Part shown: positions 11,453 through 43,853 of the stretch, in pieces
How the letters are laid out: each line of letters opens with the position of its first letter
Numbering within the stretch: position 1 is the first letter of the stretch
Source: Podarcis cretensis
Lineage: Eukaryota
Length of the DNA: 64,000 nt
NCBI GenBank assembly: GCA_951804945.1
Contig: OX638150.1
Span: 93,868,001-93,932,000, forward strand
Direction: 5' to 3'
The notes under the pieces: generated by a model
Seen by the model: the letters and a program-made list of their open reading frames with translations, nothing else
What the model was told of the DNA's origin: nothing
Database searches by the model: none
Position numbers and translations under genes: made by a program

Positions 11453-11904
11453 TTAACTAAAAAATATTAGGCTCCATGATGAGTCATGTCTCAGATCCTT
11501 ATCTTTTTTGCCATAACATTACTGGAAAGCACCAGATTACAGAAATTTATAGTTCAGTCAATGGAAACCGTTTTTATATGTGATTTGATGGGGGGTGGGG
11601 TGGGGACGAATGTGAAAAAGAATTATTGCAAGATAATGTGTTTTATTGCATCCAGTATATGGCACACATACTTTTTCTCCACCCCAATTTCTGTGGCACC
11701 CTTTCTCCCCTGCCTCTCTCCAATTGCTCTGTTTTCCTCACCCCAGTCCCCTGGGTTGCTTCCCTTTCCATCTTATCCTCTCGGTTCCTGTACCTGCTGT
11801 TCAGCTGCTCAGGTGCTGATTTGAATATTGAAAAGTACAAGCAGCTGAAAGAGGAAGTGGGGGAGGGTGTTGCTCTTCCAACTTCCTCCTTTAACTCTCT
11901 GCAC

Positions 11905-11962
11905 AATACAATACAATACAATACAATACAATACAATACAATACAATACAATACAATACAAT
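11905..11962 (+). repeat. (AATAC)n microsatellite, probably a minus-strand LINE tail
   Basis: About 11 perfect units lying inside the TSD pair 11893-11904 / 12268-12279. Confidence 0.9.
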
Positions 11963-11967
11963 AGTTT

Positions 11968-12270
11968 ATCTCTCATCTACATCTCACAACAGAGCTCTCT
12001 TGACCTCAACTGCACCTAGACAACATGTACCTCAGCAAGCCAATGGCTGCTGTATGGGCTCTGCACCACCCTTACAGCCACTGCTTCTCACAGGAGCTTT
12101 TCCATATAATATGCAAGAACTGGTACTTAAAGTAAGAGTTCAGAACCCTAAAGAGAATGACTTCATTGAAATTGAACTGGACAGACAAGAGCTGACTTAT
12201 CGAGATTTGCTCAGAGTGAGTTGCCATGAATAATCCTGAAGAAGTGGAAAAGATTAGAAAGTTACCAAAC
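11968..12270 (+). pseudogene. ANKRD40: ANKRD40 processed-pseudogene fragment (C-terminal region), frameshifted
   Basis: TGAFPYNMQELVLKVRVQNPKENDFIEIELDRQELTYRDLLRVSCHE, then in another frame NPEEVEKIRKLPN, matches the conserved ANKRD40 C-terminus. A small deletion removes the LG(I/V) residues and creates a stop at 12231-12233. No splice sites flank it. Confidence 0.9.
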
Positions 12271-12658
12271 TCTCTGTACTTTCCAGGTAGGTAACCACCT
12301 AATGAGAAAGATGGCTGTGAGTGGTGGGATGGTGGAGCTCAGATGCTTCACAAATGCTGGATTTGCCACACTGGCAACTCCAGACCTATGCAGTCACTTC
12401 TAGTCTGAGCAGCCAATGTCATCCTTTTATGCCTCTTTATTGACACCACATCAAAAGGTGCATCATGTTGACTGGATGCGGATGCAACATTAAAAGTGGA
12501 CTCACAACATATTCTTTGGGCGTGCTGTGAGACCGTCTTCACAAGTGGAGCCAAAGTAAAAAAATAACCCAAGCACCACCAGGCCACCAGAAGTGTGCAC
12601 CTACCCACCAGGCCCACAATTGTCTGCCTGTCCACCATTGCTACTAAAGGCCTTAGCC

Positions 12659-12777
12659 CAGGCATCCCCGACCTGCGGCCCTCCAGATGTTTTGGCCTAC
12701 AACTCCCATGAACCCTAGCTAACAGGACCAGTGGTCAGGGATGATGGGAATTGTAGTCCAAAACATCTGGAGGCCTT
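12659..12777. mobile_element. hAT-type MITE, right TIR partly deleted
   Basis: Starts CAGGCATCCCC, palindromic body, 8-bp TSD CCTTAGCC at 12651-12658 and 12778-12785. Confidence 0.8.
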
Positions 12778-28788: not shown

Positions 28789-30943
28789 GACTTCCGGGTT
28801 AGTGCCATCGACAATGGCAGAATTCCTCTGATCCAGAGGAACCCGCTCTGCGAAAATCAGGTCTTGCCGCCACGGCGAAGGCGGAGACCCCTTAAAAATC
28901 CCAGACGGAGGAAGCCTGGGAACGTGGGATTCGGCTGACACCAGGAGCGCCCTCCCCTACACGCAAGGGGGTCCGAAGCGACGTGGGGGTGAGTGGCGCG
29001 GTGTCTTGAATCGACCGCTATTTTTACGGAGTGAAGCCGCACAGCCGTTGCCGGAGAGCGCTGACTTTTTCCTGTGGACAATTGGACTCTAAAACAAGTA
29101 CCCGTGAGTAGAACGGAAAATTGGGCAAAGAAACATTTTAATTTGGCACTCAAGCGGGAAGGCTCTAAACAGGAAGTCCGCCTTCCGTTTTTGTAAATAA
29201 TCCAAAGCAAAAATTGTGCAAGCTAAAGCCTGAAAAGCTGTTCATAAGGATTTAAAATTCCTCCTGTTTTAACTATCCAAACCCCTCTTTGAAGTAGGAG
29301 TAAAGAGGGGAAATTTGACTGTTTATACCTGCAGGAGAGGGAGTAAAGAAAGATAAATTTCCACCGTCTCAAACCTGGGAACGGAGTGTCAGAGACAGAG
29401 ACTTTTGGTGAAGTTCATTGACCGTGAAAGGAACATCTTTTGACAGACAGCTAAAGAAGAGATACAAATTATCTTCAATGTTGCCCTTTGCATTTAAAAG
29501 GAATTAAAAATTCGAAAAGTGAAAGTAACTTTCTTTTGTTGGATTTGCTTTTAAGATGGATACAAATAGAAACTGCCTCCTCTAGAGGGAGTTTGTTAAA
29601 TTGTTGCTGGAGTCGATCTGGGGTTTTTCCAGCTGTGGTGATTAGGATCCTGGGAACAGACTGTAACCTTGAACAAAAATGTGTCTGGAAGAAACTTTAG
29701 TGCTTGCTCTCTGCAAGACGAGTGCCCTGTTAGAACAGTTGCATGAGAAAATGAATTTGATGACTGTTGCAGTTAAAAATTTTGGACAAACAGTGAATAT
29801 TTATACAGGAATTACTCAGGAGCCAACTCAAGAACCTGATTTGATGGAGCAAGTGCAAATGCAGAAGACAGGGGAGGAAATTGCTGTTGAACTTCAAGCA
29901 ATACAAATGGAGAAGCCTGAGGCCCCACAGGAGCATAAGCCGTTGTTGTTGAAGGTTGAACCTGGAGCGGGCCAGGGGAGATCTGGAATTGTGGGGGCCC
30001 TTAAGTTTGGAGGGTCCTTGAAGCATGTCTTTAAATACCCTCTGGACTACGCTGTTGTCTGTGGGGAATGGAACTATGAGGAATGGGCTGATCTCTTGAG
30101 AAAAGATGGAGACATTTTTGAGTTGGAACATCCCCGAGATCTACTCTTCAATGAGAAAGGAAAGAAACTAAGAAAGAGGTCAACAAAAGAGAAGATAAAG
30201 TGCAAGTATAAACAAGAAGAAGATCTGCAGAAGGACATGGAAGAGACTTAAGAGCCTCGGACATAAGATTACCAGGTTGATGGACCAGAAGAAAAAAAGG
30301 ACAATGACTGACATAACCTGAGACCAGGAAAAAGAGATGCTGGATGAAGATTGGAATAAAAATTTTAAAGTTTTATTTTGGAAATTATTGTAAAATTAAT
30401 GAATATTAGGAAAAACGTTGGAAGGAAACTATTTGGCTTTAGTAGAAATAATATGGAGTTATGTATAAATAAGTATTAAGTCTTAAGTTTCAAGGTATTT
30501 TATGGTAAGATAAGGTTAAAATAAATTAAGGCAAATTGAATGACAGAATATAGTAGTGAAAGATGGAAGGATTTGCTGACTTAATTAACAGGTTAGGCTT
30601 TTTAAGATAAATTATTTAATTGAAAATTGAGTGTTATTAGGTGAAAATGCAAAGTTACAATATATTTAGATGAATTATTAAGATAAAAGAAAAAATGGAA
30701 AGGATTTGCTGAAATTACTAATTGAACTAGAATACAAAAAAGGGAGGTGTGAGGAGGTCAGGGAAACAAGTAAAGGAAAGTTAAGATATGGAAAGGATGA
30801 TGTGTTGTTGTTTTTTAAATTGTTTTTATATTATTTTTACCTTTTTTGTGTGTATTTTGTATTTTTTGTTCCTCTTTTCTTTTTCTCTTTTATAGTCTTG
30901 TACCCTTTTCGAAACTTCAATAAATATTATTTTTTTAAAAAAA
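28789..30943 (+). mobile_element. Non-autonomous L1-mobilised retroposon (HAL1-like / half-L1 architecture)
   Basis: Perfect 18-bp TSD AAGAACAGTTTCAGGTTA (28771-28788, 30944-30961) at a TT/AAGA site; CpG-rich 5' end starting GACTTCCGG; T-rich 3' UTR, AATAAA and A-tail; no RT or endonuclease. Confidence 0.85.
29679..30251 (+). CDS. 190-aa orphan ORF within the retroposon (E/K/Q-rich; possibly ORF1-derived)
   Basis: ATG with A at -3, open for 190 codons, purine-rich sense strand, basic KKLRKR patch. No family recognised. Confidence 0.5.
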   Translation: MCLEETLVLALCKTSALLEQLHEKMNLMTVAVKNFGQTVNIYTGITQEPTQEPDLMEQVQMQKTGEEIAVELQAIQMEKPEAPQEHKPLLLKVEPGAGQGRSGIVGALKFGGSLKHVFKYPLDYAVVCGEWNYEEWADLLRKDGDIFELEHPRDLLFNEKGKKLRKRSTKEKIKCKYKQEEDLQKDMEET

Positions 30944-43591: not shown

Positions 43592-43853
43592 ACAACAACA
43601 ACAACAATCTTTATTACGGTCCAGAGATCCAACAAATCGTTACAAAGCAATACACAATTCATACAGCCTACCTCCAGGTTAAACAAGCATTTTGTTCAGA
43701 ATATAGGGATCATTGGTTCTTGCAACCACCGATAAAAACTTTGCCACTGCTAATGTTCTAGCATTTGTCTGGTCTTCCAATAGGAACCTGACATAGTGAG
43801 CCTCTGATTTTCCCAGGAAAGGTACCAGCAAGGGTAGTATCAGTTCAGCCCTG
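43592..43853 (-). mobile_element. LINE 3' fragment (RTEX-like) with AATAAA and (TTG)n tail
   Basis: RAELILPLL...RFLLEDQTNARTLAVAKFL C-terminal motif; TSD GAAATGCA at 43584-43591 and 43854-43861. Clade uncertain. Confidence 0.65.

Follow-up and report, generated by a model that had tools for sequence, protein, structure and literature searches.

How many RNAs were copied to build the structure at positions 11893-12279 of the window (the whole 64,000-nt stretch of the Podarcis cretensis genome analysed here; contig OX638150.1, positions 93,868,001 to 93,932,000) is the question raised by this locus, where a short direct repeat encloses both a pure pentanucleotide tract and a piece of ANKRD40-family coding sequence. 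A preliminary description took the two parts for one insertion, in which one end of the nicked target was primed on the tail of a LINE and the other inside ANKRD40 mRNA. As set out below, the insertion is real, of unusual build, single and dead, and its mechanism is not fixable from this locus alone. The reading that we prefer, at a probability of about 0.5, is that a retrotransposon made one insertion and that the (TATTG)n tract was copied from LINE RNA in the same event; this weight, and those put into words for the other readings, derive from rough priors and are not a measured rate.

Target site and its duplication

The two copies of the direct repeat (11893-11904 and 12268-12279, + strand) are identical at 11 of 12 positions, the first nine (11893-11901) being exact and a T>C difference lying at 11902. 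The left flank is the left part of an old dispersed repeat of unnamed family that served as the target (11706-11901, + strand); it has 41 own-genome matches of 70-89%, many of which end at 11898-11901. This host repeat resumes past the insertion at 12277-12346 (+ strand), where the right flank of the window continues the other copies with a mean local score of 26.0 vs 15.6 and 17.2 for two decoys (Wilcoxon p=5e-5 and 5e-4). The target site is single in 25 other copies of the host repeat, none of which contains the tract; position 11902 is T in 16 and C in 4 of these 25. The direct repeat is a true target-site duplication within the old repeat and, because these other copies have a single site and no tract, the tract and the mRNA piece both lie within one insertion, as the preliminary description had held. 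A chance repeat or an assembly error is rejected, both by the single-site copies and by contigs of related organisms that carry the same insertion.

At the left edge of the duplication, T|AA resembles an L1-type cut, and the cut site TTT|AAC agrees with the loose Y|R pattern seen in copies of the L1-like family described below, although both are weak motifs; T|AA faces the ANKRD40 strand. To the right of the insertion, a 37-nt inverted repeat element (89% complementary) occupies 12680-12773, and a similar element interrupts another locus of this genome (L181).

The insertion in related organisms

The insertion was found at the same place in all four related organisms examined, out of 23 sequencing runs listed, and their contigs contain no empty allele. 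The empty site that the preliminary description proposed to seek in related lizards is therefore represented by the single, tract-free sites of the 25 paralogous repeat copies and not by an orthologue. The tract junction was read in two of the relatives (X4 and X9), since 11935-11972 is masked as repeat and a third relative, X5, has no left-flank orthologue. Both X4 and X9 hold the tract together with the mRNA piece. The tract comprises five pure units in X4, as read from the coordinates and loose end of one 653-nt contig that spans it, at least five in X9 and 12 in the window. At the internal junction, X4 and X9 keep two extra parent bases (CT) and no LINE base, and no difference is listed for either at position 11902, which is consistent with a shared C. 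The same two relatives have a 10-nt gap somewhere in the left flank (11812-11900), a deletion of ~22 nt inside the retrocopy (11980-12002) and a 17-nt gap at 12372. Copy-specific change that preceded the split of the relatives is put at about 2%.

A spliced fragment of an ANKRD40-family mRNA

The coding piece measures 304 nt (11964-12267), has no poly(A) and stops mid-CDS, in accordance with the roughly 300 nt first described. Its matches fall at two sites, separated by 1.5 kb, at G000:C2:32.69 Mb, which is 61 Mb from the locus. The segment 11964-12117 (+ strand) corresponds to the 3′ part of a long middle exon of the parent (95% identity to G000:C2:32692823-32692976), and the segment 12118-12267 (+ strand) is the next exon, spliced on and ending at KLP codons before the exon end. 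The parent intron at MQ|ELVLK (1,488 bp, GT..AG), which had been predicted near this point, is absent from the copy at 12117/12118. In the alignment, the copy differs from the parent by 13 substitutions and by a deletion of 8 bp near 12231, which shifts the frame and is common to the orthologues in X4, X5 and X9; judged by its reading frame, the fragment is dead and without evident function. The parent has the ankyrin exons and the last exon expected of a full gene, and its exon matches ANKRD40_UBL, the ANKRD40 C-terminal family, at 0.91 in the Atlas; Pfam gave no name for this exon. Two ANKRD40-family genes stand in tandem 33 kb apart (G000:C2:32.686-32.697 Mb and C2:32727429-32727608), and, in the RENDF region, the donor lacks two residues relative to its neighbour. 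The second gene, with 84% protein identity over the exon, was rejected as the donor.

At the exact end point of the fragment, the parent reads 6/9 like the duplication, a value equalled at 41 of 3457 mRNA positions (top 1.2%). This likeness gives modest support to the proposal that the right-hand copy of the duplication served as the primer at the KLPN-T-L codons, and would favour internal priming on the mRNA, as in tailless retropseudogenes. The fragment has the features of a tailless processed retrocopy, namely intron loss, a target-site duplication and the lack of poly(A) together with a 3′ end complementary to the target.

LINE families carrying the TATTG unit

Three LINE families of this genome carry TATTG units. 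The first, which we take from its C-terminus and 3′ end to be a Rex1/Babar-like LINE, has 1927 candidates. Its tails are short and mixed (44 TATCG, 35 TATTG and 20 TATCA units over 30 copies), and duplications are nearly lacking: among the 30 copies, the longest junction repeat is 9 bp and occurs once. The family is a poor fit as the maker of an insertion whose tract is pure and whose duplication is 9-12 bp. The second, L1-like family (3167 candidates) has 2-10 pure TATTG units (median 4) in the 3′ UTR, and duplications of 12-22 bp in 17 of 26 measurable copies. Internal priming at its 3′ UTR tract was rejected: one match was obtained genome-wide at one register, and this sole copy ending in the tract has no duplication and is cut by another element, whose insertion explains it. 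An older L1-like 3′ end at 30303-30940 of the window is 75-78% like this family and has no tract.

The third is a small family that ends AATAAAGGT-ATTTG-(TATTG)n, with pure units and 107 candidates. Eight of 23 copies score >=8 for duplications vs 0 of 69 decoys, seven of the 30 loci having been left out of this count when the 3′ end was not found intact. The duplications are 9-14 bp long (13 bp in L292/L181) and often overlap the tail, some by 1-4 nt. The members L263-L292 have a C-terminal CCHC finger and a mean pairwise identity of about 86%; this C-terminus received no name from Pfam and only unnamed clusters in the Atlas, with zf-RVT the nearest at 0.90. The family presumably resembles elements of the RTEX clade. 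In one member, L264 (G000:C11:59755705-59759012), the 3′ end runs straight into a Rex1/Babar-like body. A LINE with a microsatellite tail, as postulated by the preliminary description, does thus exist, though it ends in ATTTG-(TATTG)n. The pure TATTG tail, the 9-14-bp range of duplications and the overlap of tail and target are shared with the present locus. This family is the best donor; failing it, the L1-like family would qualify through its 3′ UTR tract, and the five units of X4 fit either. The 3′ end of the small family before the tail has no match in the window.

TATTG tracts elsewhere in the genome

Comparable tract starts were surveyed with a pattern that gave 100 matches and left out tracts with T two bases upstream; with each of two three-locus clusters counted once, 96 loci remained. 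The starts were classed as 44 without a LINE end or other repeat run, 17 compound, 19 Rex-like, 12 L1-like and 4 third-family-like, although these labels are rough, since L259 is not L1-like, L172 and L238 are Rex-type tails, and four rows labelled as Rex ends are or resemble the small (TATTG)n-tailed family. That 44 of the 96 tracts are free-standing implies that a microsatellite of this unit often arises by other means. A duplication scan flagged 13 of the 96 loci vs 28 of 384 decoys. Only the present locus encloses known exons, and no second insertion of a tract with a foreign RNA was found among the 96; L259 was rejected as a second case, its enclosed 1.1 kb having no donor. Further duplication-tail-antisense-mRNA structures, for which the preliminary description had called, thus yielded no second example among these comparable loci.

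Among TATCG tracts, 136 have the usual junction and 24 do not, seven of the latter having no body match. Inserts that are tail-only or nearly so are present in this genome (L117, L119, L120, L122 and L238). In two of them, a bare TATTG/TATCG tail lies inside a duplication, of 15 bp in L238 (G000:C14:3504501-3507522) and of 25-29 bp in L122 (G000:C10:52535922-52538939), in a family that normally makes none. Two Rex1/Babar-like inserts, L172 (G000:C1:124236190-124239211) and L120 (G000:C7:74669532-74672549), are folded back on themselves, with tail repeats in opposite orientation and 24-30 nt of flank repeated in inverted form; both ends of L172 carry a tail.

Junctions of the tract: one RNA or two

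The tract occupies 11903-11963, directly at the left copy of the duplication, and is a pure (TATTG)12 on the minus strand, reading (ACAAT)12.2 on the plus strand. Its unit and strand agree with the copying of a (UAUUG)n RNA from a primer at the left end. In addition, 3 nt separate the internal junction from a TTTAT, which is complementary to the AATAAA beside these LINE tails; the 489-nt exon contains three such sites, and a junction beside one of them is expected by chance at about 2.5%, as estimated post hoc. Slippage on the ANKRD40 template alone would not readily give an ACAAT unit, to judge from the parent sequence.

On the other hand, none of the bases of the tract is diagnostic of a LINE. 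At the internal junction, AATAAAGG, TATCG units or the ATTTG unit would be specific to a LINE; the ATTTG unit, with which tails of the small family usually begin, is absent from the window, X4 and X9, and no base of a LINE body was found beside the tract in any of the three. The ATAAAC that had been read as a poly(A) signal is rejected as such: read on the other strand, it is the GTTTAT of the parent itself and thus ANKRD40 coding sequence. Nor does the AATAAAG-(TTG)n end at 43592, to which the tract had been likened, match either tail family. Of the supposed LINE-like tail there remains the existence of LINE families with TATTG units, and not a diagnostic base or an adjoining body.

The left junction bears most directly on the number of RNAs. 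Eight nucleotides (11900-11907, + strand) recur identically in the parent mRNA, 20 nt upstream of the point at which the internal junction falls in the relatives. On this basis, the T>C mismatch of the duplication would be an ANKRD40 base and the tract would replace 20 parent bases (21 in the X4 allele). A match of 8 nt was reached by 13 of 6892 control windows of 30 nt and 15 of 4132 of 50 nt; the chance of such a match to the parent mRNA is 0.2-0.4% for 8 nt and 0.8-1.6% for 7 nt. It is the left-junction match, together with the 44 of 96 tracts free of LINE sequence, that leaves a second RNA at about even odds.

There is accordingly a serious possibility that a single RNA was copied. An L1-type enzyme would have made a tailless, 5′-truncated retrocopy whose 5′ end joined the target through a microhomology of TG or TG.AC; during the insertion or later, end-joining would have removed 20 nt and duplicated the adjacent ACAAT, from which slippage grew a microsatellite resembling a LINE tail by chance. 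The 8-nt match, and with it the T>C difference, would thereby be explained, and the lack of any LINE base in the tract, the T|AA motif facing the ANKRD40 strand, the frequency of free-standing tracts and the occurrence of tailless retropseudogenes in the green anole (reported in PMC5322556) all fit. The cost is a loss of 20 nt, the birth of a microsatellite within 6 nt of the junction and an extra A, as well as a fortuitous agreement of the unit, the strand and the TTTAT-adjacent junction with LINE tails.

According to the preferred reading, in which LINE RNA supplied the tract during the same event, a LINE endonuclease would make a staggered cut of 9-12 bp. The right-hand 3′ end would pair with the mRNA at the KLPN-T-L codons and be extended by about 310-340 nt, and the left-hand 3′ end would be extended over about five UAUUG units of LINE RNA; the left-end product would then be joined to the ANKRD40 cDNA beside TTTAT, and later slippage would lengthen the tract from about five to 12 units. 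The left end may have entered the LINE RNA in two ways. In plain dual priming, it would prime directly by TAC/GUA pairing, a route that leaves the 8-nt match unexplained and that we consider unlikely. In a template jump, it would copy 6 nt of ANKRD40 cDNA, whereupon the primer would end in ACAAT and fit the UAUUG repeat, and about four more units would be copied from LINE RNA before a return. This second route needs two jumps and is put forward tentatively, but it would account for both the 8-nt match and the tail-like tract. L1 ORF2p is reported to jump templates and to extend 5-nt primers in vitro (PMC10830420). Rather doubtful is the narrower claim that the LINE was a non-L1 element with a microsatellite tail, which used its own (UAUUG)n tail for priming at one end of the cut and the interior of a host mRNA at the other, thereby capturing a spliced fragment head-to-head while leaving no more of itself than the tail.

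It is improbable that two separate events were involved, an ordinary tailless retrocopy being followed by a tail-only LINE insertion that used the ACAAT close to the 5′ end of the retrocopy for priming and removed 20 nt of it. Such a history would account at once for the 8-nt match and for a tract resembling a tail; the tail-only and nearly tail-only inserts listed above provide precedents, and inserts of the Rex1/Babar-like family mostly lack duplications. However, the tails of that family are mixed, it is improbable in itself that a separate insertion should fall 6 nt inside the junction, and the tract is already present in X4 and X9, the two relatives with contigs extending to it. Finally, twin priming on one ANKRD40 transcript ending in (UAUUG)n, for example from a LINE in its 3′ UTR, is largely refuted, barring an element since lost from the parent or lying more than 13 kb downstream. 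L1 insertions formed by classical twin priming, in which the non-inverted part consists of the tail alone, are described (PMC2837659), but the 40 kb around the parent, including 13 kb past the stop, contain no (TATTG)2 on either strand, and the parent locus has no copy of any of the three LINE families.

The proposal of one insertion primed on two RNAs therefore stands as regards the duplication, the intron loss and the priming on mRNA, and is weakened by the loss of the poly(A) signal and by a left junction that matches ANKRD40 mRNA. None of the three outcomes that had been set against it applies, since the paralogous site is single and without the tract, the fragment spans an exon junction, and a (TATTG)n-tailed LINE exists.

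Relation to known retrotransposition products

Priming on two RNAs, which the preliminary description had set against an L1 twin priming established for a single RNA, is already in print for L1 (PMC4476161; PMC2837659; bioRxiv 10.1101/2025.02.02.635956). Two-RNA twin priming was proposed for inverted U1, U2, U5 and U6/L1 chimeras (Doucet et al. 2015, PMC4476161), and the same source reports template switching for L1, L2 and RTEX elements of the anole. Like those chimeras, the present insertion has one duplication and a 3′-truncated cellular RNA, on which priming was internal and guided by pairing with the target, set head-to-head with a putative retroelement part. By contrast, the chimeras described there include identifiable L1 with poly(A), whereas only a 5-nt repeat is found here and the cargo is a spliced mRNA; the cut motif follows the L1 strand in those chimeras (PMC4476161) and faces the mRNA strand here. 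Judged as an inverted RNA/LINE chimera, the locus has the 3′-truncated RNA complementary to the target end and lacks an identifiable LINE in opposite orientation.

Antisense 5S, tRNA, U5 and mRNA/LINE-1 chimeras were described by Law and Burns (bioRxiv 10.1101/2025.02.02.635956), in whose account 2 of 17 mRNA/L1 chimeras are antisense and, as is proposed here, ascribed to twin priming; these are human L1 insertions that contain L1 body, unlike the present locus, which has no LINE body. The terms "dual priming" and tail-only heads come from poly(T)-headed L1 insertions (Meyer et al. 2010, PMC2837659), in which, similarly, a tail-only repeat inside the 5′ duplication is followed by a sense, 3′-truncated fragment. 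The duplications given in that report are 7-20 bp long, and one RNA could not be told apart from two. In those insertions the repeat is a homopolymer of T and the cargo is L1, whereas here an A-rich pentamer on the sense strand adjoins a host mRNA.

Tailless retropseudogenes (Noll et al. 2015, PMC5322556; Kojima 2010, PMC2912911) share the lack of poly(A), the target-complementary 3′ end and the duplication; the accessible parts of these two reports contain no 5′ repeat tract of the kind present here. Further context on such insertions is given in PMC10191854, PMC12016303, PMC2912911 and PMC6274825. A search of titles and of the openings of abstracts, which took in few subscription papers, brought up no case in which an inverted mRNA is fused to the microsatellite tail of a LINE. 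The locus resembles two-RNA chimeras but fails on identifiable LINE sequence, whereas it shows the intron loss, the duplication and the target-complementary 3′ end without poly(A) of a tailless retrocopy; its build is a rare, one-off version of a known retrotransposon by-product.

The locus bears on the formation of retrocopies in vertebrates whose LINEs are mostly tail-specific. If the tract is a LINE tail, two-RNA priming would no longer be confined to mammalian L1 but would include a LINE with a repeat tail, paired with a host mRNA, and the order of duplication, inverted tail repeat, sense exon-exon fragment and duplication would provide a search image for retrocopies that are missed by poly(A)-based screens. 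If, beyond this, a LINE did prime on its own tail and on a host mRNA, the insertion would be a natural case of "dual priming" with two distinguishable RNAs, and would represent a route by which tail-specific LINEs may retropose host mRNA.
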